NCBI GenBank assembly: GCA_041556195.1
Contig: JBFFIY010000006.1
Span: 1 to 60,681, forward strand
Reading direction: 5' to 3'
From: Enterobacterales bacterium
Lineage (GTDB): Bacteria > Pseudomonadota > Gammaproteobacteria > Enterobacterales > GCA-002770795
Length of the DNA stretch: 60,681 nt
Shown in pieces: positions 7,148 through 27,158 of the stretch. The translations under genes were made by a program, and so were the position numbers. Numbering within the stretch: the stretch's first letter is position 1; every line of letters begins with the position of its first letter. The notes under the pieces are model-generated. The model saw only the letters and a list, made by a program, of their open reading frames with translations, searched no databases and was not told where the DNA came from.

Positions 7148-7152
7148 ATAAT

Positions 7153-7659
7153 TTATTTTTGTTCATCCAGATAAATTCTCAGCGCAGCTTTTATCGATGG
7201 AAAAGCTATTTGTTTAAAATTTATCTGCTCGGGTCTAAACCAATTCACCTTACTGATTTCAGATGTTTGCAGTACCCAGTTAAGTGGATATTTTTGTTCA
7301 GAAACAAACACACTATCTAATGTTCGGTATTCAATATTTTTGTATAGATAAGTGTTTGGCTGAGAGCATATGTATTGCCAGTTCTGTATATTAACAGCCA
7401 GTTCTTCTTTTATTTCTCTTGATAAAGCCTGCTCTAGAGATTCATTGGGATCAACAAAACCTCCGGGCAGATCAAGCAAACCTAAGCCTGGAGATTTCGC
7501 TCTAGTGGTAAGAAGTATTTTTCCCTGATAGACAATAATCGCGGCAACTGCGGAAGCAACATTGTGATAATAAGTAAAGTTACAGTCAGAACACACAAAA
7601 TATTGCTGCTTAATGAATTCAATTTTGGAGCTATTACATGTGGGACAATATTTAAACAT
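7153..7659 (-). CDS. NUDIX hydrolase with N-terminal Zn ribbon
   Basis: CPTC...CSDC; Nudix box GGFVDPNESLEQALSREIKEEL. Confidence 0.88.
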   Translation of the reverse strand: MFKYCPTCNSSKIEFIKQQYFVCSDCNFTYYHNVASAVAAIIVYQGKILLTTRAKSPGLGLLDLPGGFVDPNESLEQALSREIKEELAVNIQNWQYICSQPNTYLYKNIEYRTLDSVFVSEQKYPLNWVLQTSEISKVNWFRPEQINFKQIAFPSIKAALRIYLDEQK

Positions 7660-7734
7660 CTAGCACCTTTGAACATCATCCTCAAAGTAAAAATGATTTT
7701 ACCTGCAAGAGTGATAATTTAACATGGATTATTT

Positions 7735-8961
7735 TTATGAAACAATGCCCGGTTGCAATGATTTAATAATTTCTATGCATCCACATATAGAATGATAGTC
7801 TGTACGCCCCATGGCTACTGCTGACGGAGCAAAGATTTTGTTGTCATAAGTTAAGTTCCGGTGCCAACACTTTTGTTTATGGTCAACCATATGTGTCCAG
7901 GAATACTGCCACAGTTGCTGGTAAATACACCAATACATATTGTTTTTCAGTTGATTGGCCAGTAATGCGGATGCGGCGATGGTTTCTGCGTGAACCCAAC
8001 TGTACTTGCCGTTACTACAGATCTCGCAGGATGGAGAAAAACCGTAATAAAGGCCACCATAATCACTGTCGTAGGCAACCCCCATTGCCCTGTCAAATAA
8101 CGTTTTTGCCCGTGATACTAACCAGCCCTGAGGGCTGTATCTGTTTATGAGCAGGAGCAGTTTTGTCCATTCGGTGAAGTGACCTGGTTGGTAACCCCAT
8201 GGCCGCAGTTTATTTTCTGTATCGCCTGCATTGTAATTAAAATCGACTTGCCAATGATGATCATAATGCTCCCAGATCATGTCATTACACTGCGTGGCAA
8301 GATCGACAGTAATGCGGCGGGCGATAACTATAGCACGCTCTAAATAACGTTGTTCTCCAGTTGCCTCAAAAGCGCTGATCAGCGCTTCACAGCAGTGCAT
8401 ATTGGAGTTTTGACCGCGGTAGGTAGAAACCCTGTTTAGTTTTGCGTCTATGACGTCCACATATAATTGATCCTGCTCCCGCCAGAAGTAACGTTCCATT
8501 AGTTGAAATGTTTCCTCGATATAATCGAATACTTCTGTGGCGCCCGCCTCATAGGTACGTGCATAAGCCATAAGAACAAATGCAATGCCATAACAGTAGT
8601 TATCTGCATCTCTGATTTGTCCATTTTCGAGGATCCAGGCATAACCTTTGGTTTCCGGGTTACGATGTCCATCACGTAGAAATTTTACTCCATGCCTGGC
8701 CGCCTCCAAATAGCTTTGGCTGACAAATTGTTGCGCCGCTGTGGCAAAATTTATAGTTAGACGGCTACTGCTTACCAGGTGCCGCTGGGTATTAGTTCGA
8801 CTTGCTTTTCCGTTGTTATCGAAATGCTGGAAATAGCCACCGTTGCTCTCATCTATACATTGTGGGTAATAAAAACCCAAAATGGAGCGGACATGTTCAA
8901 TAAGAAAATCTGTAGAACGAAAGTTTATCTGAGATTTTATATTATAGGTTGATTTCGTCAT
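7735..8961 (-). CDS. AGE-family sugar epimerase/isomerase (YihS/mannose-isomerase-like)
   Basis: RHLVSSSR, YRGQNSNMHCCEA, IWEHY, PWGYQPGHFTEW, KYSWVHAE, DYH; ORF extends to 9048 but ATG 8961 is the more likely start. Confidence 0.85.
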   Translation of the reverse strand: MTKSTYNIKSQINFRSTDFLIEHVRSILGFYYPQCIDESNGGYFQHFDNNGKASRTNTQRHLVSSSRLTINFATAAQQFVSQSYLEAARHGVKFLRDGHRNPETKGYAWILENGQIRDADNYCYGIAFVLMAYARTYEAGATEVFDYIEETFQLMERYFWREQDQLYVDVIDAKLNRVSTYRGQNSNMHCCEALISAFEATGEQRYLERAIVIARRITVDLATQCNDMIWEHYDHHWQVDFNYNAGDTENKLRPWGYQPGHFTEWTKLLLLINRYSPQGWLVSRAKTLFDRAMGVAYDSDYGGLYYGFSPSCEICSNGKYSWVHAETIAASALLANQLKNNMYWCIYQQLWQYSWTHMVDHKQKCWHRNLTYDNKIFAPSAVAMGRTDYHSICGCIEIIKSLQPGIVS

Positions 8962-9351
8962 TCTAATCTCTTGAGGGGGGAGGTTACTTGTTAACTGAAC
9001 CGGGGATAACTTGGTTATTGAATCTGGTTCCACCCGCCTCCATGCCACCGACTAAGATGTTTTCAGAAGTTAGATTAATCATCATTTTGATCCTAAATTA
9101 CGCTGCAGATGTTGTTCTGGAGTTTGTCCGGGAATAGCTTCCATTCTCGGATAAGTTACAGGTGTTCAGCAAAGAAATTTGTAATGAAATAAAAACAACA
9201 AAGTGAAAGTGTATTGCCGTTATCAAGAGCTGTTGATCTTTGGCTATAACGCATCTTTTTAGCACTTTTTTCTTTCTATCTTCGTTAGAAAAAATCATCT
9301 GAAAATCTGCATTATCTCCAAAGATAAACATCCCCTATGTTGTTTTAATGG

Positions 9352-12105
9352 CTAGAACTTCATTCGAGCGCCAAATGCAAAGCGACTACCGGTATCAGCA
9401 AGCTCAATGACACGATTTTCATAGATTGAAAAAGAAAGAGTTTGTTCATCGGTTATGTTTATTGCTTCAAAGAACAAATTAATGTCTTCGGTGATATCGT
9501 AACTTGCGCTCGCATCCCACTGACCATATGAGCGAATACTTTTAGGTTGTCCTCGATTCGCTGCAGTGGACTCGAGATAAGTATCTCTGTAGTTATAGGC
9601 GATACGGGCCTGAATAGGACCCTTTTCATAGAAAGCTACAGCATTCCAGGTTTCTGAAGTTTGATCTTCTGCTACACCATCAGTTTCCAGAGTCACATCT
9701 GTAAAGTTCGCTAGTATGCCTAAACCATCAAAAGGTGCAGGTAATGTGCTGAAGGTGTATTGCGCCGACAACTCAAATCCTTCGATATCACCTTTACCTG
9801 TATTCTCTGGGCGATTTGACAAGAAGTCAAAACCAAGAATTTGAACTATATTGGTTTGTCTTTGAGACTGATTAGAGAGATCTTTGTAGAACACTGCAGC
9901 ACTCAGGTAACTGACATCATCCATATACCAGGTTGCATTCAAATCGTAATTCCATGCTTCCATTGGTTTTAATCCTGGATTACCACTAGATACATTGCGC
10001 TCTCTTTCACGCACATTGAAATTTCGAGAAAGCATTAAGTCGCTAAGGGTCGCACGGGTAAGAGTCTTGCCGAGTGCCGTGCGTAGCACAACATCTTCAG
10101 ACAGATCAAACTTGAAATTCGCAGTAGGTAACCAAACATCATACGAACCCGTTTCCTGTATAGGAATAGCATCTGAAAATACAGGTACTGGATCGCCATT
10201 AGGTGGGACAATGATCTCTAATATTTCCTGGCCTACGCCTGAGGACGTAATATCGGTTTGTGTATAACGAAGTCCCAGGTTACCGGACCAGGGCGTATTA
10301 CCAAGTTCACCCGTAAAATTCGCCTGGATGTAAACACTGATATTCTCCTCTTCGACTTCTCCACCAGATCCTGGTACTGGTTGTACGCCCAGGGTACCGC
10401 CATTAGCTGCAATAACTGCTCTTGTGGCAGCGGGATCTGCGGTTAGGGCAATTCCTGCATCAGACAGGAAAAAAGCCTGTAATTCAGCAATTGAATATGT
10501 GGGGAAATCCGTATTGAACGAACCACCATCAAGAAATCCACTAGTATCTACAATAGAGAATAGATCCTGTGGAATGGCTACTCCACAAAAAAGACATTGG
10601 ACATTACCAGGGGTCTTGGCAACAGTTTTCCCTTTTTCACGAGTGGCGTAACTAAGGCCTGTCTGTACAGAAGTCAGGGTTCCTGTGTCAAAGGTATAAT
10701 TAAAATCGGCTGTCGCCTGGAAGGTTTCGTCCTCAATGCTCCTGCCTTCCCAGGTAAACCAACCGAATGTTGCTTGTGAAGTATCACTTACATCACCAAT
10801 ATTAGAAAACACAGGCAAACCATTGGGGCTTTGATCAAACACTACTGCAGCAGGATCAGATACATTAAGGTTGGCATCGAACCATGCCTGATTGCCTGCT
10901 GTACTGTCTGTTGATTTTGAATAAGCGACATCAAAAACAGCTGAAAGATGATCGCTAAAGATCCAGTCTGCGTTAAAGCCCACTTGCTCGGTTTCGGCTA
11001 GACGAGGTCGAATAAAAGAAACGATTCTCTGGTTGGTGATCCCTCTGGAATGAATGACAGTATTATTCGCATCGACCATTGCTTCTGTTACATTATTTGG
11101 ATCCTGGTAATGAAAAATAGAGCGGCTGTCATCATTAACGTCAAGCTTGGAATAAAGCCCATCAAGGGTAAGTCGCAAATCGTCACTGACCTGCCATTGT
11201 AGTGCCGCTGTTGCGCTGCTCCGTTCACGATCAGTTTCGTTAATATCATAACTAACAAAAGTTGGTATAGAAACACCCCCTAACTCCGGCGTACCGTCAT
11301 TATCAAAATCCAGGTCACGGTTAGCTTCGTAGCCATCTGTAAATACTCTTTCATTACGAAAATCGCGTTTGATATAGGCGAATGACAGCAGAGCACCAAA
11401 TTTGCCATCCATAAACGTGTCACTGACAAAACCTGAAATTTGCGGCGATGTCTCTTCTCGTGAATCATCATAAACTCCTTTGGCAGATAAATGTCCTCTA
11501 AAACCGTCAAAATCCAGCGGGCGTGACGTTTTCATATTAATCGTTGCGCCAATGCCGCCTTCAATTAAGCTGGCTGTAGGTGTTTTGTATACATCTGCAG
11601 CGCTCAACAGTTCAGCAGGAAGAATGTCAAAACTAAATTCACGACCATCGTTTTCCGTAGCAAGAACACGGCCATTTAATAACACTGTGTTAAACGCAGG
11701 CCCCATGCCACGTACGGTAACAAACTGGCCTTCACCACCTGAACGCGAAATAGTAACACCAGGAATACGTTGTAAGGCTTCAGCTACGTTTTGATCGGGA
11801 AACTTACCTAGGTCTTCTGCAGCAATTGAGTCTACAATAGAATCTGCATTGCGCTTAGTAGATAACGCGGCTCTTTGGCTGTTGCGTATCCCCGAGATCA
11901 CAACAACGTTTTCCTCGTCACCGATTTCATCCGTTTGATTTTCATCTGCGGTTTTATCTATTTCAGCAAGCTTAGCATCTATAGGCTTTGCATCTATAGG
12001 CGTTGTATTTTCATCTGTGGCGTTAGCAACTATTGGAAGTTGCGCTAATGCAAAAATAATTGCAACAGCCAATTTATTGGACTTAAACTCCGTCTTTCTT
12101 TTCAT
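9352..12105 (-). CDS. TonB-dependent outer-membrane receptor (glycan type)
   Basis: Signal peptide, plug motifs DSIAAEDLGKFPDQNVAEALQRIPGV and VRGMGP, GNPGLKP, C-terminal Phe. Confidence 0.93.
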   Translation of the reverse strand: MKRKTEFKSNKLAVAIIFALAQLPIVANATDENTTPIDAKPIDAKLAEIDKTADENQTDEIGDEENVVVISGIRNSQRAALSTKRNADSIVDSIAAEDLGKFPDQNVAEALQRIPGVTISRSGGEGQFVTVRGMGPAFNTVLLNGRVLATENDGREFSFDILPAELLSAADVYKTPTASLIEGGIGATINMKTSRPLDFDGFRGHLSAKGVYDDSREETSPQISGFVSDTFMDGKFGALLSFAYIKRDFRNERVFTDGYEANRDLDFDNDGTPELGGVSIPTFVSYDINETDRERSSATAALQWQVSDDLRLTLDGLYSKLDVNDDSRSIFHYQDPNNVTEAMVDANNTVIHSRGITNQRIVSFIRPRLAETEQVGFNADWIFSDHLSAVFDVAYSKSTDSTAGNQAWFDANLNVSDPAAVVFDQSPNGLPVFSNIGDVSDTSQATFGWFTWEGRSIEDETFQATADFNYTFDTGTLTSVQTGLSYATREKGKTVAKTPGNVQCLFCGVAIPQDLFSIVDTSGFLDGGSFNTDFPTYSIAELQAFFLSDAGIALTADPAATRAVIAANGGTLGVQPVPGSGGEVEEENISVYIQANFTGELGNTPWSGNLGLRYTQTDITSSGVGQEILEIIVPPNGDPVPVFSDAIPIQETGSYDVWLPTANFKFDLSEDVVLRTALGKTLTRATLSDLMLSRNFNVRERERNVSSGNPGLKPMEAWNYDLNATWYMDDVSYLSAAVFYKDLSNQSQRQTNIVQILGFDFLSNRPENTGKGDIEGFELSAQYTFSTLPAPFDGLGILANFTDVTLETDGVAEDQTSETWNAVAFYEKGPIQARIAYNYRDTYLESTAANRGQPKSIRSYGQWDASASYDITEDINLFFEAINITDEQTLSFSIYENRVIELADTGSRFAFGARMKF

Positions 12106-12220
12106 CTCAACCCCAATTCTTTGTATTTTTTTATGAGTAAGTTAAAACCAGTTTCCACAGTGAAATCACGACTAACTGGGGGAGCCTGGTTTAACGGTTA
12201 AAATTTAATCAACAAGATTG

Positions 12221-12270
12221 AGTTTAACGTTAAACCTTAGCGATGGCAAGAGTTATATTTAACGTTAAAC
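12221..12270 (-). promoter_or_regulatory. TonB-receptor promoter with two LacI-type operators GTTTAACGTTAAAC (12222-12235, 12257-12270)
   Basis: Minus strand TTGCCA (12249-12244), 17 bp, TAAACT (12226-12221); one perfect and one 13/14 palindrome. Confidence 0.72.
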
Positions 12271-12357
12271 TTGATGGTAAAAAGTTTTCCAAATGAGATA
12301 ATTTGGTTATTTTAGTTTTTGATTGACTTTAAAATGGCTCGACAATTTTTGATGTTA

Positions 12358-13446
12358 TCAGGAATGAATAGCTTCACCTTTTGCATCAAATAGTAAAATT
12401 TTTGGAAGGGCAATGCCAAGAGTTAAGCGATCTGAACTATTGAATTTGTGCTGTCCCTGAAGTTTTACTCTAAAATCGAATTTATCGAATAATTTAGCGT
12501 AAATATACGTCGCATCGCCTAGAGACTCAACTTCATTCACGATCAAATCTAACGCCATATCTCTATTATTTACAGTGGTACTTATATGTTCTGGCCGCAA
12601 GCCCAAAATAATCTCATCATCCATGTTCAATGTTGGGAGATTAACCTCAAGACAGATTTTTTTGTTATCAAAAAGGTTGATAAAAAGCTTATTTTTCTGG
12701 TTTTCTATGATTTTTCCTTTCAATAAATTGATTTTGGGACTACCAATAAAATTAGCGGCAAAGATATTTTCAGGATGATTATAAAGTTCCAGAGGAGATC
12801 CAATCTGAACAATATTCCCTTCATTCAGCAAGACGATACGATCAGCCATTGTCATAGCCTCAATCTGATCATGAGTAACATAGATCATTGTATTATCAAG
12901 TTTCTTATGTAACTTGATTAGTTCATGCCGCATTCGAACTCGCAATTCAGCATCCAGATTTGACAAAGGTTCGTCGAATAAGAAAATTTTGGGATCACGA
13001 ACAATAGCTCGTCCAATAGCAACTCTTTGTCGCTGACCGCCGGAAAGCTGGCTTGGAAGACGCTCCAGATAATCACCTAATTGCAATATATCCGCAGCAT
13101 GCTGGATTTGTTGTTCAATGTATTGTTTGCTGCACTTCATATTTTTAAGGCCAAAACCAAAATTTTCTCTAACTGTCATATGAGGATATAAAGCATAGGA
13201 TTGAAACACCATGGCGATGCCTCGTTTGGATGCTGCTATCTTTGTCACATTGTTGTCTTCGATATAGATCTCGCCAGAAGTCACTTCTTCCAGGCCGGCT
13301 ATCATTCTCAATATAGTGGATTTCCCGCAGCCAGAAGGGCCGACTAAAACAATGAACTCTCCTGATAGAATGTTAAGATTGAGATTATGAATAGTTTCTA
13401 TTTGGTCATAGGTTTTGACGAGATTTTTAATTGTTAAGCTGGTCAT
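12358..13446 (-). CDS. Sugar ABC transporter ATP-binding protein (MalK/MsmK/UgpC family)
   Basis: GPSGCGKS, VFQSYALYPHM, LSGGQRQR, DEPLSNLD, YVTHDQ. Confidence 0.94.
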   Translation of the reverse strand: MTSLTIKNLVKTYDQIETIHNLNLNILSGEFIVLVGPSGCGKSTILRMIAGLEEVTSGEIYIEDNNVTKIAASKRGIAMVFQSYALYPHMTVRENFGFGLKNMKCSKQYIEQQIQHAADILQLGDYLERLPSQLSGGQRQRVAIGRAIVRDPKIFLFDEPLSNLDAELRVRMRHELIKLHKKLDNTMIYVTHDQIEAMTMADRIVLLNEGNIVQIGSPLELYNHPENIFAANFIGSPKINLLKGKIIENQKNKLFINLFDNKKICLEVNLPTLNMDDEIILGLRPEHISTTVNNRDMALDLIVNEVESLGDATYIYAKLFDKFDFRVKLQGQHKFNSSDRLTLGIALPKILLFDAKGEAIHS

Positions 13447-13450
13447 ATAG

Positions 13451-14518
13451 CTATAGTTTTCCTATTTTTGCAGTACTGCCTCTTTTTATTATCCTCGCTT
13501 CAATATTGATCCTTTGACCCTGCTCCTTACCTTTTTGCAGCAACGCTTCAGCGGCTTTACGACCTTTTTCATAGGCCTCTTGTCTGACCGTAGTTAACGC
13601 CGGTAATGTAGAGTTTAGATTTTGGGGTAGAATGTCATCAAATCCGGTTACCGAAATACGCTGGGGAACAGCTAGGCCAAGCCGCTTACATTCAGTCATT
13701 GCACCATAAGCGAGTCGATCGGAGAAACAAATGAGCGCGGTAATGTCAGGTTGTAGATCTAACAGATGTCGCGCTGCTTCAGCTCCACCATCTTCACTGT
13801 TAGTTGTTTCCTGGATCAAAATACTACTCATCTTAATGTTGCTTCTTCCTATAGCTTCCTTACAGCCATTTATTCGTTGGCTTACAACGTAATTATCTCT
13901 ATCCAGCACTCGATCCAGGGTACATAAATCATAACGGCCTTCTTTTATAGGAAAGGTAATTATACCGATCTGGCGGTGTCCAAGAGACAAAATATAATCA
14001 GTCATTTCGCTCATCATAATTGAATCGTTGGTCAAAACACTGATATGTTCCGGCGAATCAAAGTCAACCACAACGGTAGGTAAGCCTCTGGCAAGTGCTC
14101 GCTGGGTAGTTGGATTATTGCTATAAGGAGCGTTGAGAATATAACCGTCCACCATGGCACCTAGTGGCTCAAAATCATTCACACTGCTATTTTTTAGAGG
14201 TATCAAAACGATGTTAGTCCCTTCCACTTCACAAATAGAGGAAATGCCCCGTAGGAATTCTATATCATGAGGATCAGAAAAGGCGTAGCTGAGTTGATCA
14301 TTAAAGATTATGCCAATAGCTCCATATAATCCTGTTCGAAGCGATCTTGCCGCTGGATTTGGACCGTGGTAATCAACAGATTTGGCATAATTAAATATCT
14401 TACTGCGTAGCTTGTCGGATACTTTAGTCGGATTATTGAATGCATTTGAAACCGATGTATGGGTTATACCAAGCTCTGCCGCAATAGACTTCAGAGTAAC
14501 TTTTTTTCGGCTTTTCAT
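13451..14518 (-). CDS. LacI-family regulator of the glycan locus
   Basis: HTH TLKSIAAELGITHTSVSNAFN, AARSLRTG hinge, VTGFDD, LTTVRQ. Confidence 0.9.
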   Translation of the reverse strand: MKSRKKVTLKSIAAELGITHTSVSNAFNNPTKVSDKLRSKIFNYAKSVDYHGPNPAARSLRTGLYGAIGIIFNDQLSYAFSDPHDIEFLRGISSICEVEGTNIVLIPLKNSSVNDFEPLGAMVDGYILNAPYSNNPTTQRALARGLPTVVVDFDSPEHISVLTNDSIMMSEMTDYILSLGHRQIGIITFPIKEGRYDLCTLDRVLDRDNYVVSQRINGCKEAIGRSNIKMSSILIQETTNSEDGGAEAARHLLDLQPDITALICFSDRLAYGAMTECKRLGLAVPQRISVTGFDDILPQNLNSTLPALTTVRQEAYEKGRKAAEALLQKGKEQGQRINIEARIIKRGSTAKIGKL

Positions 14519-14657
14519 CGAAAATATCCTTCTCCGGAATTATATAAGTTTTTACCAACTGGTATAGTATTGAAGTAAGTACCTCTATGACAGTTCACAG
14601 TCACGAAAGCCTTTATCTAGCAACTTGATGTCCAAACAACATAAATTTTGACTTGTC

Positions 14658-14675
14658 TTATCCCAAGCTGAGGTT
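14658..14675 (-). repeat. Solitary family A terminal repeat
   Basis: TTATCCCAAGCTGAGGTT resembles TTATCCAGAGTTGAGGTT at 23539-23556. Confidence 0.45.
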
Positions 14676-14730
14676 AGTTAAAGCTTATGTGCAGTATACA
14701 GCATCAAATTTTTAATACACAGAAATTTAT

Positions 14731-14780
14731 GTTTATCGTTAAACCTTGACACGGGTAATATTTTTGGTTTAACGTTAAAC
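14731..14780 (+). promoter_or_regulatory. Promoter of the ABC/hydrolase operon with two LacI-type operators (14731-14744, 14767-14780)
   Basis: GTTTATCGTTAAAC and perfect GTTTAACGTTAAAC flank TTGACA (14746-14751). Confidence 0.72.
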
Positions 14781-14905
14781 TTTTTTGCAAGTTGTTGAAA
14801 TGAAGTAACCCTTGACTAAAGGTAATGGACTAATTTGCTTATGACTTCTCTGGCAAGCAATGCGAATGACATATGGTGTATAAGCAGCTTGACTGAGAAA
14901 ATTTA

Positions 14906-14954
14906 TATACCCGTGATACTTTGAAATGAATAGTTTCCAAGTATCACGGGTATA
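14906..14954. repeat. Family C mini-element/hairpin in the operon leader
   Basis: Perfect 16-bp inverted repeat TATACCCGTGATACTT / AAGTATCACGGGTATA. Confidence 0.7.
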
Positions 14955-14985
14955 GATAGACATAATAAGACGAGTAGTTATATCA

Positions 14986-16260
14986 ATGAATTCAAAAATT
15001 GACAAATATAGGGCAACCGTTTTTTTGTTTTTATGTATGAGTATTTTTTTAACTGTGGCATGTAGCAGCAACAAGGGAGCAGCACTATCGCGTAAAACAG
15101 CCTTTATAGGCACTAAGATCAACTTGCAACATTTCGATCATTTGTTTACTGAAATCAACGTTGATAATAGAAAAATGGGGGTTGTAAATATTTATAGTGA
15201 ATACCCAGATTATACCTATGCGATAGAGCCAGCCGAAGGATTTGCCTGTGTGGATGACGCTGCCAGAGCTATTGTCATGTTGTCACAGTTTTTAAAGGTG
15301 CAACATAACGACGAAATTTTGAAAGAACTTAAAATGCTTATTGAGTTCGTTTTGTATATGCAAAACGACAACGGATATTTTAATAATTTTATTTGGCGGG
15401 ATCTGTCGATAAATACCCAATATAAAACCTCGGTAGCTGAAATAAACTGGTGGTCTTTGAGAGCGTTATGGAGTCTACAAGTTGCTTCTGAACTGGTACA
15501 GGCCGATTTGGGTTTAACAAGCAGAATCAAAAAGGCAGCAGATAAAGTTGTTTTAAATATAAAAAGAGATATTCCGCTAACGAATTTAACAACCGAGGTT
15601 GTTAATACGATAGAACTGCCTGTTTGGCTGCCAAATAAATATGCTGCAGATCAAGCTGCAGTAGCAATTATTGCGCTATTACCCTATTACCAAAAAAGTG
15701 ATGATAGCCAGGTATTGGAAATTATTAACGTTCTGGCAAAAGGCATAATGCAAATGCAAAAGGGTGATGCCAATAATTATCCTTTTGGCATGTTTTTAAG
15801 TTGGAAAAATCAGTGGCATTCATGGGGTAATAGCCAGGCATACGCGTTATTGTTAGCTGGACAACAACTGGAACGCCAGGAATATATACAAAGTGCGTTG
15901 CTTGAAGTTGATAATTTTTACCCTTATCTGTTGAAAAATGGTTTTGCTGAATCAATATGGATTGAACACAAAGTGGATGGATATTCTGAAACCAATAGAA
16001 AGCGTTTTCCTCAAATAGCTTATGGAATACGGCCGATGGTTTTTGCTGTAACAGAAGCGTACAGGATCACAAAAAATGAGAAATATTACACTCTTTTAAC
16101 AAAGTTTAAGTCCTGGTTTTCGGGTGTTAATGTTGCCGCCCAAATTATGTATGAACAGAGTAGTGGAAGAGTTTATGATGGTATTATTTCTACCACAGAA
16201 ATTAATATGAATTCCGGGGCAGAATCGACAATAGAAGGTTTAATGATCTTGCAAAAATAA
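14986..16260 (+). CDS. Uncharacterised lipoprotein, probable six-hairpin (alpha/alpha)6 glycosidase-like fold
   Basis: Lipobox TVAC; motifs EGFACVDDAARA, GYFNNF, QIAYG, YDG, NSGAESTIE; first gene of the sugar operon. Confidence 0.6.
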   Translation: MNSKIDKYRATVFLFLCMSIFLTVACSSNKGAALSRKTAFIGTKINLQHFDHLFTEINVDNRKMGVVNIYSEYPDYTYAIEPAEGFACVDDAARAIVMLSQFLKVQHNDEILKELKMLIEFVLYMQNDNGYFNNFIWRDLSINTQYKTSVAEINWWSLRALWSLQVASELVQADLGLTSRIKKAADKVVLNIKRDIPLTNLTTEVVNTIELPVWLPNKYAADQAAVAIIALLPYYQKSDDSQVLEIINVLAKGIMQMQKGDANNYPFGMFLSWKNQWHSWGNSQAYALLLAGQQLERQEYIQSALLEVDNFYPYLLKNGFAESIWIEHKVDGYSETNRKRFPQIAYGIRPMVFAVTEAYRITKNEKYYTLLTKFKSWFSGVNVAAQIMYEQSSGRVYDGIISTTEINMNSGAESTIEGLMILQK

Positions 16261-16276
16261 GTTCAGGGGAGGCTCT

Positions 16277-17566
16277 ATGAGGAATATTATTGAAATGATG
16301 TTGGCGGGCGCTTTTCTGTTGATAAGTGGTTGCTCTGGATCTGATCCGACACCAGAAGAATTTTCTGATGATAAGATCATAAGATTGTGGGTAGCACCCG
16401 ATGAATCACAAGAGGCGTTTTGGAAAATTGTAGTAGAACGATGGAACAAACGTGGTTCAGGCATACAGGTAAAATTCAAGACTATCCCAGCAGTAGAAAG
16501 TTCAGAAAAGGCTATTTTAACAGCTCTCGTGGCGGGTAATGCACCTGATCTATCGACCAATATATTCTCCGGTTTTGCCGCTCAACTGGCTGGTCTGGGG
16601 CAGTTGCAAGATCTTTCGGTGATGGATGGTTATAAGGAACTGGTATTGGTTCGGCACATGGAAAGCATCATGCAAGGCTGGGATCAGGGTGGGAAAAAAT
16701 ATGTCTTCCCACTTTATTCCAATCCTACATTAATTTGGTGGCGTGGTGATATTTTGCAAAAGCTTGGGATCAACAAAATACCGCAAACCTACGATGACGT
16801 CTATGAACTTTCAAAACAATATGCTGCATCTGATCATAAATTTGGGATGCAAATTATGACGGGTTTAAATTGGTACGACAGATGGTACGATTATATTTCA
16901 TTCTATTATGCCGCCTCGAATGGTGTGCCTTATATCAATGATGGCAAAGCGTTTTATGATAATGATGCGGGTCTTTCTGTTCTGACATTTATGGACACCA
17001 TATATAAGAATGGGTGGACTGCACTGGATTTTGAAAGTGATGATCCTTTAACGACAGGTTTGGTTGTTGGTGCGGTGCGGGGACCCTGGAGCGTATCTTT
17101 TTTCAAACGTATGTATCCTGATACACTGAAAAAAATCATTGTCGGGCCAATGATCCGCAAACATAAAACCGATGGGAAGGCATACACCTTTGCCGATAGC
17201 AAAGGGTTGGTATTATTCAAGCATAGCAAAGTGAAAGCGGAAGCCTTCGCCTTTATCTCCTGGGTACTTAGCAACGATGAACTTAGCCTGTTGTGGTTGG
17301 AAAAAACAAACCTTCCTCCGGCTCGTGGCGATCTGATGGAGAATGCAATATTTAAAACCTTTTATGAGGCTAATCCACTCGCAAAACAATATGCCATCTA
17401 TGTTGACGTCGCAATACCATCTGCATTCATTGAAAGCACCATTGACGTGCAAAAAATAATGGGGTTTGAAATGGTTGAATCAGTGAAATTTGGTACCAAA
17501 CCCCCTGAAACCGCATTAGCCGATGCTGTCAGACGCACCAATAAATTATTGAAGGTGGCGCATTGA
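16277..17566 (+). CDS. Sugar ABC transporter substrate-binding lipoprotein
   Basis: Lipobox ISGC, AGNAPDL, extracellular solute-binding family pattern; precedes two permeases. Confidence 0.88.
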   Translation: MRNIIEMMLAGAFLLISGCSGSDPTPEEFSDDKIIRLWVAPDESQEAFWKIVVERWNKRGSGIQVKFKTIPAVESSEKAILTALVAGNAPDLSTNIFSGFAAQLAGLGQLQDLSVMDGYKELVLVRHMESIMQGWDQGGKKYVFPLYSNPTLIWWRGDILQKLGINKIPQTYDDVYELSKQYAASDHKFGMQIMTGLNWYDRWYDYISFYYAASNGVPYINDGKAFYDNDAGLSVLTFMDTIYKNGWTALDFESDDPLTTGLVVGAVRGPWSVSFFKRMYPDTLKKIIVGPMIRKHKTDGKAYTFADSKGLVLFKHSKVKAEAFAFISWVLSNDELSLLWLEKTNLPPARGDLMENAIFKTFYEANPLAKQYAIYVDVAIPSAFIESTIDVQKIMGFEMVESVKFGTKPPETALADAVRRTNKLLKVAH

Positions 17567-18459
17567 GTATGAAATTTGGGAATATAAAACTCGGTGAAAT
17601 AAGAGAATCCCAAATAGGGGCTGCACTGGCAGTATCATTTTTGTTGTTTAACGTGATTTTTTGGGCTTATCCATTTGTATGGTTGCTTATATTGTCTTTT
17701 TCCGATTGGCGTTTTTTTGATGTGCCAACCTTTAGCGGATTGAAAAACTTTTTTATTGTTTTGGATGATCCGGAATTCTGGCGCTCATTATGGAATGTGC
17801 TCCGGTTTTTGGGATATTATGTGCCCATCGTATTGACATGTTCCCTCGCTTTTGCATTTGGTTTACAGCATATTGGTCGTGGCAAAGTTTTTATTGCGTT
17901 GTGTTTCCTGTTGGCTCACATTTCCTCCGGCGTTGCCTATTCTCTGGTTTTTACAAAAATATTTAGTTCTACTGGCCCGATGAACAGGCTCCTACTTGAT
18001 TGGTTTGGCTTCTCTATTCCCTGGTTGTCCAGTCCGTCCATGGCAATGTTTTCAATTTCCCTGGTCGTGACGTGGAAATTCGTGGGCTACTACGGACTAA
18101 TATTGTATTCAGGTCTCGTGGCCATACCCAACGAGATCTATGATGCGGCAAAACTTGATAATACCCCGCCACTCATGAGGCTGTTCAAGATCAGCCTTCC
18201 CATGATCAATTCACAACTGATTATGGTATTGGTCTTTGCCATAACGGTTGCTTTTGGCATTTTTACCGAGCCTTACATGATGACTGCTGGTGGGCCAATG
18301 GAAAGTACCAATATGCCGCTACTTGTCATATATGAATCGGCATTCCATCGTTTGCAGCCAGGTCGTGCAGCCCTGATGGCGGTAATCATTGCCATCGTCA
18401 GTTATTTAGCAATCAAAATTATGCGCAAGATCCTGGAAAAAAATGTGGAATTGGTATGA
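17563..18459 (+). CDS. Sugar ABC transporter permease (MalF-like)
   Basis: EAA-like loop IPNEIYDAAKLD, MTAGGP, hydrophobic segments. Confidence 0.9.
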   Translation: MSMKFGNIKLGEIRESQIGAALAVSFLLFNVIFWAYPFVWLLILSFSDWRFFDVPTFSGLKNFFIVLDDPEFWRSLWNVLRFLGYYVPIVLTCSLAFAFGLQHIGRGKVFIALCFLLAHISSGVAYSLVFTKIFSSTGPMNRLLLDWFGFSIPWLSSPSMAMFSISLVVTWKFVGYYGLILYSGLVAIPNEIYDAAKLDNTPPLMRLFKISLPMINSQLIMVLVFAITVAFGIFTEPYMMTAGGPMESTNMPLLVIYESAFHRLQPGRAALMAVIIAIVSYLAIKIMRKILEKNVELV

Positions 18460-19304
18460 TTGACTTAAAGAAAAAAATACCGCAAAAGAGTATAGGCAGT
18501 TGGGTTATCACCGTTTTAATGTATATCCTGGCCTTAACATGGTTATATCCATACATCTGGATGGTGATGGCTTCCCTCAAACCAACCCCGGAGATATACC
18601 ATACGGATTTATTTTCTGGCTCATTTACGTTGGATAATTACCAATTTCTGTTTGACAGTGCGGAAAAATTAAATCGACCATTTCTAAAATCTCTGTTCAA
18701 TTCTTTTTTTATTACCCTAAGTGTCACGGCCTCGGTTGTGATCACATCGGCTTTTATTGGTTATGCGATGGCAAAAATTGATTTTTGGGGACGAGAACGG
18801 GTGAATAATTTTATTCTATTTCAAATGGTTGTTCCGGCTATGATGCTTCTTATCCCCCAATTTGTTCTGATCAAACAACTTGGATTGATTAATACATATT
18901 CTGCAATGATACTACCGGTAATGGTGTCGGGCTGGGGAATATTTATGATGGCTCAGGCCTTTAAAGGGACACCGAATGATTATATTGATGCTGCAAAACT
19001 GGATCGAGCCAGTCTGAGACAGATTGTATTCAATCTTATGGTACCTCTAAATAAGTCCATTGTCGCAATTGTAGCACTGTTTACTTTCACTGGTACCTGG
19101 GACAATTTTATGTGGCCTCTGATCGTTATGTCGGACGTTGATAAAATGCCATTATCCGTGTTGCTTGCGACCTTCAGTAAACAATATGGCATCTATGTTG
19201 GACCCGTGATGGCGGGATCTGTGTTGCAAGCTCTGCCGCTTGTGTTGCTTTTTATTATTTTCCGACGATATTTCTTACAGGGAATGTCCCTGTCGTTGAA
19301 GTGA
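18456..19304 (+). CDS. Sugar ABC transporter permease (MalG-like)
   Basis: PNDYIDAAKLD, WDNFMWPLI, FLQGM. Confidence 0.9.
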   Translation: MIDLKKKIPQKSIGSWVITVLMYILALTWLYPYIWMVMASLKPTPEIYHTDLFSGSFTLDNYQFLFDSAEKLNRPFLKSLFNSFFITLSVTASVVITSAFIGYAMAKIDFWGRERVNNFILFQMVVPAMMLLIPQFVLIKQLGLINTYSAMILPVMVSGWGIFMMAQAFKGTPNDYIDAAKLDRASLRQIVFNLMVPLNKSIVAIVALFTFTGTWDNFMWPLIVMSDVDKMPLSVLLATFSKQYGIYVGPVMAGSVLQALPLVLLFIIFRRYFLQGMSLSLK

Positions 19305-19305
19305 C

Positions 19306-20934
19306 TTGAATTATATGTTGTCAAAAACAAAAAATAAATGGTGGCAAAGCACCGTTTTTTACGAGATTTATATCGCCAGTTTTCAAGATGGTAATGGTGA
19401 TGGGATCGGTGATTTTGAAGGGCTGACAAGTCGTCTGGATTATCTGCAACGCCTGGGTGTCAATGGTTTGTGGATCACACCATTTTATCCATCGCCCAAG
19501 GTGGATAACGGTTATGATGTTGCGGACTATTTTAATGTCGATCCAGATTTTGGCAGTTTGGCGGATTTTGATCACTTTATTGAACAGGCTCATGAACGCA
19601 ACATAAAAGTTATCATTGATGTTGTGCTGAACCATGTGTCGACAGAGCATCCATGGTTCAGGGAAGCCGTATCCAATCCAACATGTAAATACCGGAATTA
19701 TTTCTTTTTTCGGGATGAACCTAATGGTTGGGAATCCTTCTTTGGCGGATCTGCATGGGAAAAAGAGCCGGAGGGAAATCAAGTTTATTATCACAAATTT
19801 TCCCCGAGCCAGGCGGATCTTAACTGGCAAAACAAGGCGGTGATGGATGATATGCTGGCAGTGTTGAAATTCTGGATAGAGCGGGGTGTTGATGGCTTTC
19901 GTCTTGATGTTATTAATTTTCTTTCCTGCAATGGCATAGGTGACGAAAACCTTCTCCGTGATACTAAGGGTAAGCAAATTCACAACCATGACATTGACCA
20001 GCCGGATATTTATTCCTGCATCTCTGAAATATGCGGTTATGTCAGGGATTACAGTACATCAGTAGGTAGAGAATGTTTTTTGGTCGGAGAGGTGGGACAT
20101 GAGGAAATATCGAAATTGACTCCCTTTCAAAGTGACGATTTGCTGGATGTAGTTTTTAACTTCAATTTAGGATCAATATTAAAGTTTGATATTTGCGAGG
20201 TCTATAAACAGTTAGTCGCTATGGAGGAGCAGCATAGTGGTTTACCTACACTATTTTTTAATAGCCATGATTTGCCCAGGTCCATGAGCAGACTTTGCCA
20301 TAATAATGTTGAACAGGCTGGTGCATTAGCTGCGCTAATCTTAATGGCGAAAGGTGTAAGCTTTTTATATTTTGGTGAAGAAATAGGCATGGCCGATTTT
20401 ATTCCGGAAAGCATTAGTGAAATGCAGGATATTCAAGCAGTAAATCACTATCAATTAGCGTTAGCAAAGGGCAAGACGACACTTCAGGCATATACCAAAG
20501 CCCTTGAGGAATGTCGCGACAAGTCTCGTTTGTACATGCAATGGAACGATGACAAATTCTCTGGCTTCACTACGTCAGCACCCTGGATCGGTAAGACAGC
20601 ACCAAAAAACCTGCCCAAAGTTGAAGAACAGATCAACGATCCTGATAGCCTCTGGCATTGGTATAGAAAACTAATTGCTTTGCGCCGGGACAATCAAGCG
20701 CTTAACTTTGGCAGTTACGATATTTTGTCTCTGGACAATAAACTATTGTCAATTTCTCGTCGTTGGCAAAGTCAAACTATTCACATTCAAATAAATTTCG
20801 GTGATGTAAAACAATTTATTAACTGCAATGATTCTCATGAAGTTTTGGCCAGCAAAGGATTAAGCATTTGCAAACAAAATTGTCTATTACCTTTTGGGAC
20901 TCTAATTACAAGAGAAGTATCAGATGTTTGTTAA
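19306..20934 (+). CDS. GH13 alpha-glucosidase (oligo-1,6-glucosidase/TreC-like; probable start ATG 19315)
   Basis: SFQDGNGDGIGD, DNGYDVADY, DVVLNH, DGFRLDVIN, VGEV, NSHDLPR, YFGEEIGM. Confidence 0.88.
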   Translation: MNYMLSKTKNKWWQSTVFYEIYIASFQDGNGDGIGDFEGLTSRLDYLQRLGVNGLWITPFYPSPKVDNGYDVADYFNVDPDFGSLADFDHFIEQAHERNIKVIIDVVLNHVSTEHPWFREAVSNPTCKYRNYFFFRDEPNGWESFFGGSAWEKEPEGNQVYYHKFSPSQADLNWQNKAVMDDMLAVLKFWIERGVDGFRLDVINFLSCNGIGDENLLRDTKGKQIHNHDIDQPDIYSCISEICGYVRDYSTSVGRECFLVGEVGHEEISKLTPFQSDDLLDVVFNFNLGSILKFDICEVYKQLVAMEEQHSGLPTLFFNSHDLPRSMSRLCHNNVEQAGALAALILMAKGVSFLYFGEEIGMADFIPESISEMQDIQAVNHYQLALAKGKTTLQAYTKALEECRDKSRLYMQWNDDKFSGFTTSAPWIGKTAPKNLPKVEEQINDPDSLWHWYRKLIALRRDNQALNFGSYDILSLDNKLLSISRRWQSQTIHIQINFGDVKQFINCNDSHEVLASKGLSICKQNCLLPFGTLITREVSDVC

Positions 20935-21985
20935 ACGTTCAAAACTCAATCCCATTGTTATGCCAGATATGGTTAAACCAAGTAGGGAAGACTTCAAAGT
21001 TGATGGAACCTTCAATGCCGGTATCATAGAGCATAATGATGAAATTATTATGTTACTACGGGTTGCGGAAAGCATGTCCAGCACCAAAGAAAATGAAATA
21101 AAAACACCCCTTTTAATTGAGCTGCCTGATTCTTGGGAAGTGATAGTTAAGACTTTTCAGAGAGATGATCCCAATTATGATTTTTCTGATCCTCGAGCAA
21201 TCGTATTACGAGAAGATCCAACCCAGGTACATCTCACTTCGTTGTCCCATATCAGGATAGCTCGAAGTGTTGATGGTGAGAAATTCATAGTTGATGATAA
21301 TGCTTTTATTTTCCCAAATAATCGCTATGAAGCTTATGGTTGTGAAGATCCAAGAGTTACCCTGATCGAAGGCAGTTTTTATATTAATTATTCATCGGTA
21401 TCGGAATATGGTATTAGCACCTCCCTTGCTCGCAGTTCTAATTTTCAGCGGGTGGAGAAATTGGGAGTCATTTTTTCTCCAGATAACAGAGATGTCTGTT
21501 TCTTTCCTGAAAAGATTAATGGTTACTATTGGGCACTACACCGTCCGGCGCCACTACATCTGGGTACGCCTGAGATTTGGCTGGCAAAATCTCCCGATCT
21601 TATTCATTGGGGCGATCACCGAAGATTAGCTGGATGTTTAGGCAATGGCTGGGAGCAAAAAAAAATTGGTGGTGGCGCACCGATGCTTAAAACAGAAAAA
21701 GGGTGGTTACAAATCTATCATGGGGTAGATAAATCACAACGTTATAGTCTGGGTGCTTTGTTAATTGACCAGAATGATCCGACAAAGGTGATAGCCCGTA
21801 TGCAGCATCCCATTGTGGAACCCAGAGAGGCATACGAAGTTGAAGGCTTTTTTGGCAGTGTAGTATTTTGTTGTGGCGCTATTATTAAAGATGATGTGTT
21901 AAATATTTATTACGGTGCCGCAGATAAGGTGATGGCATTAGCGACTATCAATTTAAATGAAGTATGGCGGAACCTGTCAGTCTGA
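20924..21985 (+). CDS. GH130 beta-mannoside phosphorylase (beta-1,2-mannobiose/oligomannan phosphorylase-like)
   Basis: FNAG, LLRVAE, DPR, LTSLSHIRIARS, YGCEDPRVT, ALHRP, KIGGGAP, IYHGV, YYGAAD. Confidence 0.88.
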   Translation: MFVKRSKLNPIVMPDMVKPSREDFKVDGTFNAGIIEHNDEIIMLLRVAESMSSTKENEIKTPLLIELPDSWEVIVKTFQRDDPNYDFSDPRAIVLREDPTQVHLTSLSHIRIARSVDGEKFIVDDNAFIFPNNRYEAYGCEDPRVTLIEGSFYINYSSVSEYGISTSLARSSNFQRVEKLGVIFSPDNRDVCFFPEKINGYYWALHRPAPLHLGTPEIWLAKSPDLIHWGDHRRLAGCLGNGWEQKKIGGGAPMLKTEKGWLQIYHGVDKSQRYSLGALLIDQNDPTKVIARMQHPIVEPREAYEVEGFFGSVVFCCGAIIKDDVLNIYYGAADKVMALATINLNEVWRNLSV

Positions 21986-22013
21986 CGGGATGTTGAAGAG
22001 AGTATATTATGCA

Positions 22014-22958
22014 ATGAGCAGAAATAATCCAAAGCGTGTGAGCGAGCTATTTTCTGAATTTTGGAAAGAACGCAATAACAACAAAAACAATGCTGGCAAG
22101 CTATGTTTTAAAGGCGTGAGTAATCATGATGTCTATAATATTACTGCACCATTTAACTCAGCAAATAAAGTCATTATTGCTGGAAGAGTTGAGCCCAGAG
22201 ATCAAGAATATTCCTCCGTTATTTTTTTTGAAGAAATTGACAATGCGTGGCACCCCATTGTTGGCGCACCTATGTTCAAATTGCAAGATCCCTTTGTAAC
22301 ATTTATTAAGAATGAACTGATCTTCGGTGGAGTAGAGATCTGGGATATTGATGGAGAAAAGGGTGAGAGAGAATTGGAGTGGAAAACAGTTTTTTACCGA
22401 GGCTCCGATATTTTTAATCTGATTGAATTTTTTAGTGGCCCAACAGGAATGAAAGATATTCGATTATGCGATCTTGAAAACGGCAAGATTGCCGTTTTTA
22501 CAAGGCCTCAAGGTAGCGTAGGGGGGCGAGGTATTATTAGTTATACTGAAGTCAACCAACTAAAAGAGCTAACCATCGAAGTAATTGAGGATGCGCACCC
22601 ACTAAAAAACATGTTTCACTCCATGGATTGGGGAGGCGTCAACGAGGCTCATAGATTGGTTAATGGGGAAATTGGTTTGTTGGCTCATGTAGCCTATTTT
22701 GAAAATGATGACTCAAATCAAGAGAGACATTACTATACCTCTTCGTTTATTTTTGACCCCGTTCTCAGACGATTTAGAGATCTAAAAATTATCGCTTGTC
22801 GTAAACAGCTTGGGGCTGGGCCAGCTAAACGAAAAGATCTCTCTGATGTAATGTTTTCTGGAGGGTTAATTCGAGTTGATGAAATGGCTATTCTGTATGC
22901 AGGGGTGTCGGATACCGAAGCCCATTGGATAGAAATAGACAATCCTTTTGCCACATAA
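22014..22958 (+). CDS. DUF1861 / MTP-like (GT108) beta-propeller mannosyl transferase-phosphorylase family protein
   Basis: DVYNITAPF, IAGRVEPRD, LQDPF, GPTGMKDIRL, FTRPQG, WGGVNE, DVMFSGG, YAGVSD; ORF track start 21957 overlaps GH130, ATG 22014 more likely. Confidence 0.82.
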   Translation: MSRNNPKRVSELFSEFWKERNNNKNNAGKLCFKGVSNHDVYNITAPFNSANKVIIAGRVEPRDQEYSSVIFFEEIDNAWHPIVGAPMFKLQDPFVTFIKNELIFGGVEIWDIDGEKGERELEWKTVFYRGSDIFNLIEFFSGPTGMKDIRLCDLENGKIAVFTRPQGSVGGRGIISYTEVNQLKELTIEVIEDAHPLKNMFHSMDWGGVNEAHRLVNGEIGLLAHVAYFENDDSNQERHYYTSSFIFDPVLRRFRDLKIIACRKQLGAGPAKRKDLSDVMFSGGLIRVDEMAILYAGVSDTEAHWIEIDNPFAT

Positions 22959-23050
22959 CATGGCGCAAAGGCGACTGTGCTACTGTTACGATTTTGCTCG
23001 ATAGCAGAAGTAATTTTGCCATTCTTCCAAAGGTTGAGTTATAGCAAGAT

Positions 23051-23083
23051 TATAGCCGCTGTTATTCAAAACGCCTGTTTCAG
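23051..23083 (+). repeat. Degenerate family C end
   Basis: TATAGCCGCTGTTATTCAAAACGCCTGTTTCAG aligns with the reverse complement of 158-190. Confidence 0.45.
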
Positions 23084-23198
23084 AGTTTAGCCGGAAACTC
23101 CCAAAATGAAAATTCGTCTCTTTGATTGCTTTTCTCATGGGGTAAGTAAGTGGTTGGTAAGCCACCTACTTTAACCAGGGCAGAACATTGGTAACAGC

Positions 23199-23216
23199 AT
23201 TGACACCGGTGTCAAT
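23199..23216. promoter_or_regulatory. LacI-type operator upstream of the edd operon
   Basis: Perfect 18-bp palindrome ATTGACACCGGTGTCAAT containing TTGACA; same motif precedes glk. Confidence 0.72.
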
Positions 23217-23327
23217 TTATGGGTTAATGCTCTTAGTTATTACGGATAATTTTGTACTTTAAGAACCCAGTATTTAAGATAAGATTCAAATGTCAAGATG
23301 TCAAAATTGACTGGTTGTGGAATAAAT

Positions 23328-23556
23328 AACCTCAACTCTGGATAAGATCTGTTATCCAAATTTATTAAATGTCGAATTTTCAATAAGTTACATGTATTGA
23401 TTCTTTGCAAATATTGATTAGTAGGCTCAATATTGGGATTTTTGTGCTTAGCAAGGCAAATTCGCGAACGAATAGCTGGCTATTTTGAGTGAATTTAACG
23501 CTGAAAAGCGCAAAAAACACTGTATTGAGGGGCGTAGATTATCCAGAGTTGAGGTT
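23328..23556. mobile_element. MITE-like element, family A
   Basis: Perfect 18-bp terminal inverted repeats AACCTCAACTCTGGATAA / TTATCCAGAGTTGAGGTT, no ORF; partial second copy at 46774-46906. Confidence 0.8.
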
Positions 23557-23571
23557 AAATAAGGTAAATTA

Positions 23572-25440: not shown

Positions 25441-25445
25441 GAAAT

Positions 25446-25659: not shown

Positions 25660-25678
25660 TAAGAAATGGGAAAAAAAA

Positions 25679-27154: not shown

Positions 27155-27158
27155 AATC

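Follow-up and report, generated by a model that had tools for sequence, protein, structure and literature searches.

The stretch of DNA analysed here, positions 1–60,681 of contig JBFFIY010000006.1 from an Enterobacterales bacterium (assembly GCA_041556195.1; hereafter the window, 60,681 nucleotides in full), belongs to a marine Gram-negative bacterium with a genome of 5.34 Mb (G000, 99.16% complete). At positions 7153–22958 the window carries a locus that is probably a LacI-repressed regulon for the uptake and phosphorolytic breakdown of β-1,2-mannosides. The locus encodes a TonB-dependent outer-membrane receptor, an ATP-binding cassette (ABC) importer, a LacI-family repressor, an exported lipoprotein, and enzymes of the families GH13, GH130, GT108 (DUF1861), and AGE. 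These genes had been listed in an earlier reading of the DNA (the original prediction), and we found the open reading frames (ORFs) and their domains where it had placed them, together with a NUDIX hydrolase gene that it had left unnamed.

β-1,2-Mannosides are antigenic structures of Candida and form the reserve glycan of Leishmania. The β-1,2 phosphorylases of GH130_4 and GH130_6 and the bacterial GT108 enzymes have so far been characterised in vitro only, and the studies considered here leave their natural substrates and roles open (PMC12814180, PMC10913872). The regulon described below would set GH130_4 and GT108 in a defined, repressor-controlled Gram-negative uptake route, and it offers an operator that can be tested as well as a candidate effector.

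Two Predicted Cytoplasmic Phosphorylases

The GH130 gene (20924–21985, plus strand) codes for a protein that, among solved chains, scores highest with Lin0857 of Listeria innocua, a β-1,2-mannobiose phosphorylase (PDB 5B0P; 342.6 bits, residues 3–352 against 3–351). The other β-1,2 enzymes follow with 266 (Uhgb_MS), 187 (Teth514_1788), and 165 bits (Teth514_1789), and β-1,4 enzymes reach 153 (TM1225), 121 (5AYD), 112 (UhgbMP), and 39.5 bits (BfMGP, 3WAS). The original prediction had singled out a grouping with β-1,4-specific enzymes as the outcome that would tell against a β-1,2 type; by score (342.6 bits against 39.5–153) the protein sides with the β-1,2 enzymes. Its Pfam label, PF04041, is named for a β-1,4 enzyme, and the β-1,4-mannan reading that goes with this label was rejected on the solved-chain scores.

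Over its full length the protein is closer to GH130_4 than to other subfamilies, with the GH130_6 chains at 165–187 bits. Lin0857 and Uhgb_MS have both been placed in GH130_4, where R47 and E136 of Uhgb_MS, in the +1 subsite, confer β-1,2 specificity and a long lid (Lin0857 residues 52–105) restricts the enzymes to degrees of polymerization of 2–3 (PMC12814180). Both specificity residues named in that study are kept in the window protein as R46 (in LLRVAE) and E141 (in GCEDPRV). The lid segment is also present, residues 50–104 aligning with residues 50–103 of Lin0857 with two small gaps of two and one residues. We describe this protein as a GH130 subfamily 4 enzyme with predicted β-1,2-mannobiose/-triose phosphorylase activity.

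The adjacent gene (21957–22958, plus strand) codes for a GT108 homologue with a strong match to PF08950 (364.6 bits, cut-off 28). The public gene call for this protein has 306 residues, compared with 333 in the ORF, so that translation probably starts near 22038. The protein scores 145–173 bits with structures of the Leishmania enzymes of this family (MTPs), of which MTP4 (6Q50) gives 172.9 bits. At the phosphate-pocket switch, its Arg183 (FTRPQ) aligns with Arg150 of MTP4 (FSRPR) and His161 of MTP2 (FTHFR). MTP2 is a strict transferase, and AsGT, the one bacterial GT108 enzyme tested, is a bifunctional phosphorylase/transferase (PMC10913872). Sequence checks detected no signal peptide in the GH130, DUF1861, GH13, or AGE proteins, so these four enzymes are predicted to be cytoplasmic.

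Operator Sites and Proposed LacI Control

Allowing at most one mismatch, the window contains four copies of the 12-mer TTTAACGTTAAA (12223, 12258, 14732, and 14768; 0.53 expected), a number that none of 100 shuffled windows reached (0/100). The sites are arranged in two pairs. On the receptor side, the palindrome GTTTAACGTTAAAC (12222–12235, site 1) is accompanied at a distance of 35 bp by ATTTAACGTTAAAC (12257–12270, site 2). In the divergent region between the LacI and lipoprotein genes, GTTTATCGTTAAAC with one mismatch (14731–14744) lies 36 bp from a perfect copy of GTTTAACGTTAAAC (14767–14780). Site 1 coincides in part with a minus-strand promoter-like site (12249–12221); across 7000–23600 as a whole the promoter and terminator scan gave no enrichment over shuffled sequences (38 promoter-like sites against 45.9, and 15 terminator-like sites against 13.8).

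In the whole 5.34-Mb genome the operator 14-mer, again with at most one mismatch, has only seven sites, of which four are those in the locus. The remaining three lie inside an ORF on contig C61, before a TonB-plug gene on C19, where the central CG is destroyed, and near the contig end on C276. No sugar genes adjoin any of these, and we rejected them as extra members of the regulon.

The motif recurs in both kinds of position, ahead of the lipoprotein/LacI genes and ahead of the receptor gene, in seven of the nine other proteobacterial loci (L002, L003, L004, L005, L018, L035, and L036), with paired sites usually spaced by 35–37 bp, and the operator is found in a more distant variant as well (L092, described below). 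LacI orthologues with 55–80% identity occur in seven related loci, which are the same loci that retain the operator. The motif is absent from L029 and L034, whose fetched stretches contain no LacI orthologue, and from all four Bacteroidota/Ignavibacteriota-type loci checked (L037, L049, L013, and L055). What we find is a palindrome with a central CG that stands in the promoter regions of the units it would control and is conserved together with the regulator, and we predict it to be the LacI operator.

The receptor gene (9352–12105, minus strand) codes for a TonB-dependent receptor with plug (PF07715) and barrel (PF00593) domains that matches TIGR01782 with 665.6 bits (cut-off 310). Its orthologues, with 42–71% identity, occur in all nine proteobacterial loci for which at least 12 kb was fetched. 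In some of these the gene has moved, to a place after the DUF1861 gene in L002–L004 and far upstream in L018, and it still carries the paired sites. Since the operator footprint tracks the receptor gene across loci, the receptor can be regarded as a true member of the regulon. The original prediction had described the locus as a LacI–ABC–GH13–GH130 core, of a kind it placed in Listeria, with an added outer-membrane layer; this layer is supported at the level of the regulon, both here and in seven of the nine other proteobacterial loci. The proposal of divergent units with one shared operator holds for the receptor side and the LacI/lipoprotein region (four sites against 0.53 expected); the AGE gene has no such site before it.

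The LacI-family repressor (13451–14518, minus strand; PF00356, PF13377, PF00532) is followed by the gene for an ABC ATPase of the MalK/UgpC type (12358–13446, minus strand; PF00005 and a MalK OB fold, NF008653 with 458.9 bits, cut-off 432). The ATPase gene starts 5 bp past the LacI stop codon, and the two genes are probably co-transcribed. On the plus strand, the run of genes from the lipoprotein to GT108 is close-packed, with gene ends that overlap or lie at most 17 bp apart. Between lipoprotein and phosphorylase genes this run contains the solute-binding protein (16277–17566; PF01547, 87.4 bits), two permeases (17563–18459 and 18456–19304; both PF00528), and the GH13 enzyme. Signal peptides are present in the receptor (ordinary type) and, with a lipobox cysteine, in both the lipoprotein and the binding protein (lipobox LISGC). 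ABC binding proteins of the lipoprotein type are usual in Gram-positives and uncommon, yet known, in Gram-negatives.

An Exported Partner of GH130 Enzymes

The first gene of this run (14986–16260, plus strand) codes for a 424-residue exported lipoprotein with the lipobox ...LTVAC and Cys26 as the predicted lipidation site. In our view it is the most valuable part of the locus: an uncharacterised, exported, and widely conserved partner of GH130 enzymes that is without a Pfam model and stands almost always beside GH130 genes. No Pfam family scored above its cut-off with this protein; the catalytic domain of GH127 gave a partial match below threshold (21.9 bits against 24.9), and two relatives match DUF6288 marginally. 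Among solved structures only 7TEM is a close relative (E 5.6e-87, 39% identity); it is named a "putative exported protein" and is itself uncharacterised. A search of the ESM Atlas returned only clusters with no name or a generic one.

An AlphaFold2 model built from 15 relatives (pLDDT 86) shows an (α/α)6 barrel. Searched against 48,161 chains, the model finds 7TEM with a Z score of 54.6, followed by cellobiose 2-epimerases, a mannose isomerase, and AGE at Z 27–29 and by GH76 α-mannanases at about 26, all with 8–12% identity. This fold is common to many glycan-active enzymes and does not by itself give the function. Homology to the AGE protein of the same locus was considered and is not supported by sequence, the hhalign profile comparison giving a probability of 1.25.

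The family is large, with 1828 relatives (E ≤0.001) among 6133 candidates, and well conserved, with a mean column identity of 61% over 15 members from several phyla. A strict lipobox pattern occurs in 58 of 110 full-length members, and the listed remainder have signal-like hydrophobic N-termini. Many of the invariant residues of the protein, namely D90/D91, N154–R159, D222/Q223, Q284, R349–M351, and E413–E417, cluster in the model around the N-termini of six helices that start at about 89, 155, 221, 284, 349, and 412, spaced by about 65 residues; D139, E307, and E357 are invariant as well. Enzymes with an (α/α)6 barrel form their pocket at the N-terminal helix ends, and we read the clustered residues as a predicted conserved active or binding site.

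A pattern scan with one genome per species gave 224 stretches with a relative of the lipoprotein. The best 80 of these were fetched and two with partial genes were dropped, leaving 78 loci. GH130 is encoded in the same locus in 73 of the 78, and within 300 bp of the lipoprotein gene in 64. Four of the five loci without GH130 are contigs of at most 5.4 kb, the fifth being L081. We regard the lipoprotein as a candidate periplasmic enzyme that would process the imported glycan. If it is an enzyme, it probably represents a new glycoside hydrolase family and would reveal which glycan such loci harvest; enzymes of this kind would be tools for making and analysing β-1,2-mannosides. More tentatively, and less likely right than wrong, it may found a new family of exported glycoside hydrolases, endo- or exo-acting periplasmic enzymes that cleave β-mannosides, possibly β-1,2-mannanases. 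In Proteobacteria, Bacteroidota, and Ignavibacteriota-type bacteria, such enzymes would do the work outside the cytoplasm that has been missing upstream of the GH130 phosphorylases. Were this so, marine bacteria could forage a β-1,2-mannoside glycan, such as a protist reserve or wall glycan, whose occurrence in the sea has so far gone unrecognised.

Predicted Mannose Metabolism

The AGE-superfamily protein (7735–9048, minus strand; PF07221, 306.8 bits) aligns with solved chains from residue 41–43 onward, which suggests that the true start is probably Met29, at 8964. It scores 417 bits with 3GT5 and 374.7 bits with 5X32, which is titled a D-mannose isomerase, compared with 29–42 bits for cellobiose 2-epimerases. 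By these scores the protein is nearer to a mannose isomerase than to an epimerase, the term used in the original prediction, and it is most likely a cytoplasmic D-mannose isomerase.

The GH13 gene (19306–20934, plus strand) codes for a predicted cytoplasmic α-glucosidase of the oligo-1,6-glucosidase type (PF00128, 366.5 bits). Its best solved chain, 1UOK (346 bits), places it in the oligo-1,6-glucosidase/α-glucosidase group, and the motifs GFRLD, GEV, and NSHD are present. A finer assignment was not possible, and no equivalog was reached in the NCBIfam search.

Elsewhere in the same genome, C11 encodes a phosphomannomutase that shares 64% identity with its L092 counterpart; we also found a ManC-type bifunctional GDP-mannose pyrophosphorylase/phosphomannose isomerase (GMP/PMI) on C14, and two PfkB kinases. 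To call the locus complete, as had been done, is therefore too strong, since phosphomannomutase and mannose-6-phosphate isomerase activity are encoded outside it.

Proposed Pathway

Taken together, these genes suggest the following route. When the sugar is absent, LacI would bind to the paired GTTTAACGTTAAAC operators and silence the receptor gene, the lacI-ATPase unit, and the seven-gene operon from lipoprotein to GT108. An oligo- or polysaccharide would cross the outer membrane by way of the TonB-dependent receptor and might be trimmed or cut in the periplasm by the (α/α)6 lipoprotein. The product would then be taken into the cytoplasm by the lipoprotein-type binding protein, the two permeases, and the MalK-type ATPase. 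There, GT108 would shorten longer β-1,2 chains by phosphorolysis, and the lidded GH130_4 enzyme would convert β-1,2-mannobiose and -triose to mannose 1-phosphate and mannose. GH13 might remove or split an α-glucoside part. Mannose would be converted to fructose by the AGE-type isomerase, and mannose 1-phosphate would be handled by the phosphomannomutase and mannose-6-phosphate isomerase activity encoded elsewhere. The products could enter the Entner–Doudoroff pathway, for which genes flank the locus. Within the reach of sequence evidence, the interpretation given in the original prediction is thus supported. Gene content, family and subfamily membership, operator conservation, and synteny are observations, whereas the enzymatic steps, the split of tasks between GT108 and GH130, and the substrate, including polymeric β-1,2-mannan from yeasts or protists as considered in the original prediction, are proposals.

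Several observations weigh against this assignment. We know of no natural source of β-1,2-mannan in this habitat. The GH130 protein matches NF050092 over its full length with 466.6 bits, below the equivalog cut-off of 550, and for this reason we assign it to the subfamily only, regard its activity as a prediction, and do not call it an equivalog. Likewise, the AGE protein reaches 195.4 bits on the NCBIfam model ManIsomPseudo (NF051846), far below the cut-off of 600. A type I mannose-6-phosphate isomerase was not found in the host's own genome at 99.16% completeness. No operator was found before the AGE gene, and the terminator scan gave no terminator-like site on the minus strand between the receptor and AGE genes; the latter may thus be expressed by read-through from the receptor promoter or be under separate control. 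The arginine at the GT108 switch permits phosphorylase activity and does not diagnose it (PMC10913872). Finally, pure β-1,2-mannan needs no α-glucosidase, yet eight of the ten proteobacterial loci whose flanks were adequate retain GH13, as do flavobacterial loci, so that the substrate may not be a linear β-1,2-mannan. This conserved GH13 is the main observation that plain β-1,2-mannan leaves unexplained.

It also provides the ground for a first alternative, which we regard as unlikely: the substrate would be a mixed glycan or glycoside with an essential α-glucosyl part, GH130_4 and GT108 would cut an uncharacterised mannoside linkage (for example, a β-mannosyl-glucoside), and the lipoprotein would release a small hetero-oligosaccharide. 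A GH13 orthologue beside the lipoprotein and the GH130_4-like gene, in flavobacterial as well as in most proteobacterial loci, is what this alternative would lead one to expect, and PMC12814180 leaves the physiological role of GH130_4 enzymes open. However, L029 and L034 keep the rest of the locus without an orthologous GH13, and the downstream enzymes that accompany L092 are mannose-specific.

As a second alternative, GH130 and GT108 might build or recycle an intracellular β-1,2-mannan reserve from GDP-mannose and mannose 1-phosphate, comparable to the mannogen of Leishmania, with the transport genes as mere neighbours. GDP-mannose can be used by GT108 enzymes and by all tested β-1,2 GH130 phosphorylases (PMC12814180, PMC10913872); in addition, a GH130 pair on C14 stands directly before the gene for the ManC-type GDP-mannose pyrophosphorylase, where the stretch read contains no transporter, and the locus has a NUDIX gene at its border. 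This explanation nevertheless seems very improbable to us, because the phosphorylase genes are tightly packed on one strand together with those for the binding protein and permeases, the outer-membrane receptor is under the same operator here and in relatives, the locus is without a gene for GDP-mannose synthesis, and its control is of the repressor type, as in catabolic sugar operons.

A pathway for β-1,4-mannan or the N-glycan core, of the kind that combines an epimerase with a mannosylglucose phosphorylase, is scarcely credible even though the pairing of AGE-family and GH130 genes is its hallmark (PMC12871903) and PF04041 bears the name of a β-1,4 enzyme, since GH130 gives 39.5–153 bits with β-1,4 enzymes against 342.6 with Lin0857, the AGE protein gives 375–417 bits with chains of the mannose-isomerase type against 29–42 with cellobiose 2-epimerases, and no β-mannanase was seen among the domain annotations of the window.

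Related Loci and Variants

The regulon for β-1,2-mannosides that we favour is not confined to this genome. We found the full layout again (receptor, ATPase, LacI, lipoprotein, ABC genes, GH13, GH130, and GT108) in the proteobacterial loci L002–L005, L018, L029, L034, L035, and L036, with the exception that L029 and L034 are without orthologous GH13 and, in the fetched stretch, without orthologous LacI, the rest of the locus being kept.

We compared 50 of 120 GH130 ORFs from related loci with NCBIfam models, and all 50 scored best on one of two β-1,2 models; as the NCBIfam output contained no β-1,4 GH130 model, the 34 weak matches (130–272 bits) are not discriminated. All seven proteobacterial enzymes among the 50 score 453–477 bits on the best model of the window GH130, and nine from Flavobacteriia and Saprospiraceae score 382–416 bits.

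A variant from another genome of the same order (L092, genome G297) combines LacI, ABC genes, and GH13 with GH130 (57% identity), GT108 (52%), and a lipoprotein homologue (41%); a TonB receptor is absent from the 20 kb that were read. Joined to these are genes for phosphomannomutase, type I mannose-6-phosphate isomerase, and an APH-family kinase, the set required for growth-independent use of neither more nor less than mannose 1-phosphate and mannose. Between its GT108 and lipoprotein genes lies a 383-residue ORF without a Pfam match (L092:10907–12055).

The locus is rare in its own order. Among 301 genomes of this order, DUF1861 scores above cut-off in four and the lipoprotein is found in three including G000; neither was found in four other genomes of the same family. 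The locus proteins encoded at 12358–22958 are 65–90% identical to those of Emcibacter-like alphaproteobacterial loci (L002–L004), permeases 1 and 2 being 85% and 90% identical to the copies in L002. By comparison, Edd of the nearest same-family genomes, which are fragmented, is 60–62% identical. The higher identity of the locus across classes indicates that it has moved between classes.

In Flavobacteriaceae the counterpart is a classical SusC/SusD locus that contains, in this order, a hybrid two-component regulator, SusC, SusD, a lipoprotein homologue, a GH130_4-like gene, an MFS transporter, and a protein of 579–638 residues. The regulator is present in all three annotated loci, and two of these (L037 and L049) end with GH13. 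A GH13 orthologue, with 43–52% identity across phyla, occurs in the flavobacterial loci L021, L037, L039–L041, and L047–L050. Many Bacteroidota and Ignavibacteriota-type genomes have a second arrangement, which consists of binding protein, two permeases, GH130, lipoprotein homologue, GH130, and ATPase.

The 579–638-residue protein follows the MFS transporter in L037 (13709–15445), L049 (13701–15464), and L025 (13666–15579). A search with the L037 copy returned neither a Pfam family nor, by sequence, a solved relative, and gave only a faint LanC-like match. It may be a second helical-barrel enzyme that stands where GT108 stands in Proteobacteria.

Comparison with Known Systems

Among the nearest known systems is the Thermoanaerobacter cluster (PMC4264767), in which an ABC importer and two cytoplasmic phosphorylases with split chain-length ranges convert β-1,2-mannosides to mannose 1-phosphate, much as we propose for GT108 and GH130_4. 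This cluster belongs to a Gram-positive organism, and neither an outer-membrane receptor nor an (α/α)6 lipoprotein is reported for it. Both of its phosphorylases are GH130_6 enzymes, whereas the window locus pairs GH130_4 with GT108. It further contains GH5, a guanylyltransferase, and GT4, read as GDP-mannose salvage (PMC4264767), in place of which the window locus has GH13, a mannose isomerase, and LacI control. For Listeria innocua Lin0857, the best-matching solved protein, the comparison concerns the enzyme (342.6 bits, lid and specificity residues kept).

The Leishmania enzymes MTP1–7 share the GT108 family with the window protein (145–173 bits), which has an arginine at the position of MTP4 Arg150. 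They are eukaryotic enzymes that make and turn over the internal reserve glycan mannogen (PMC10913872, PMC8950772), in contrast to a GT108 gene that lies in a bacterial uptake operon. The yeast-mannan loci of B. thetaiotaomicron and B. ovatus resemble the window locus in being Gram-negative, in using a TonB-dependent importer, and in addressing β-1,2-mannosidic linkages (PMC4599007). Their GH130 β-1,2-mannosidases are secreted GH130_3 hydrolases (PMC4599007), whereas the window GH130 is predicted to be cytoplasmic and gives 58.5 bits with 5A7V.

Proteobacterial loci of the Xanthomonas/Caulobacter type combine a TIGR01782-type receptor, LacI, an inner-membrane transporter, and glycan-active enzymes in a single regulon. 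Compared with these, the substrate class and enzyme set of the window locus (GH130_4, GT108, and the lipoprotein family) were not found described in the literature searched. A full-text search, which left most subscription journals outside its coverage, returned no proteobacterial locus of such layout and no function for the lipoprotein family, and the combination of 7TEM with GH130 gave nothing relevant.

Neighbouring and Additional Genes

The NUDIX hydrolase (7153–7659, minus strand; PF00293, 69.4 bits) is a peripheral member of the locus. No NCBIfam model reached its cut-off with this protein, and a copy with 74% identity stands at the opposite flank of L036. To the left of the locus lie glk and a second LacI gene (5078–7147), and to the right edd, zwf, eda, a GAPDH gene, and pgi (23572–31255). 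Just upstream of glk, at 339–4692, we found a small α-glucoside module made up of an MFS transporter, a second GH13, and a third LacI-family gene, which makes the neighbourhood a sugar-catabolism island around the Entner–Doudoroff genes.

The GH130 pair on C14 of the same genome (about 23770–28630; L093/L094) comprises a 468-residue GH130 protein and a 649-residue protein with two GH130 domains, directly before the ManC-type enzyme. No transporter was found near it in the 32 kb read, and the cluster may be a module for internal mannoside synthesis or recycling. Farther along the window, at 47487–57048, an 1100-residue ORF without a Pfam match is followed by a 2096-residue DEAD/helicase-C protein; together they may form a module for defence or one that belongs to a mobile element.

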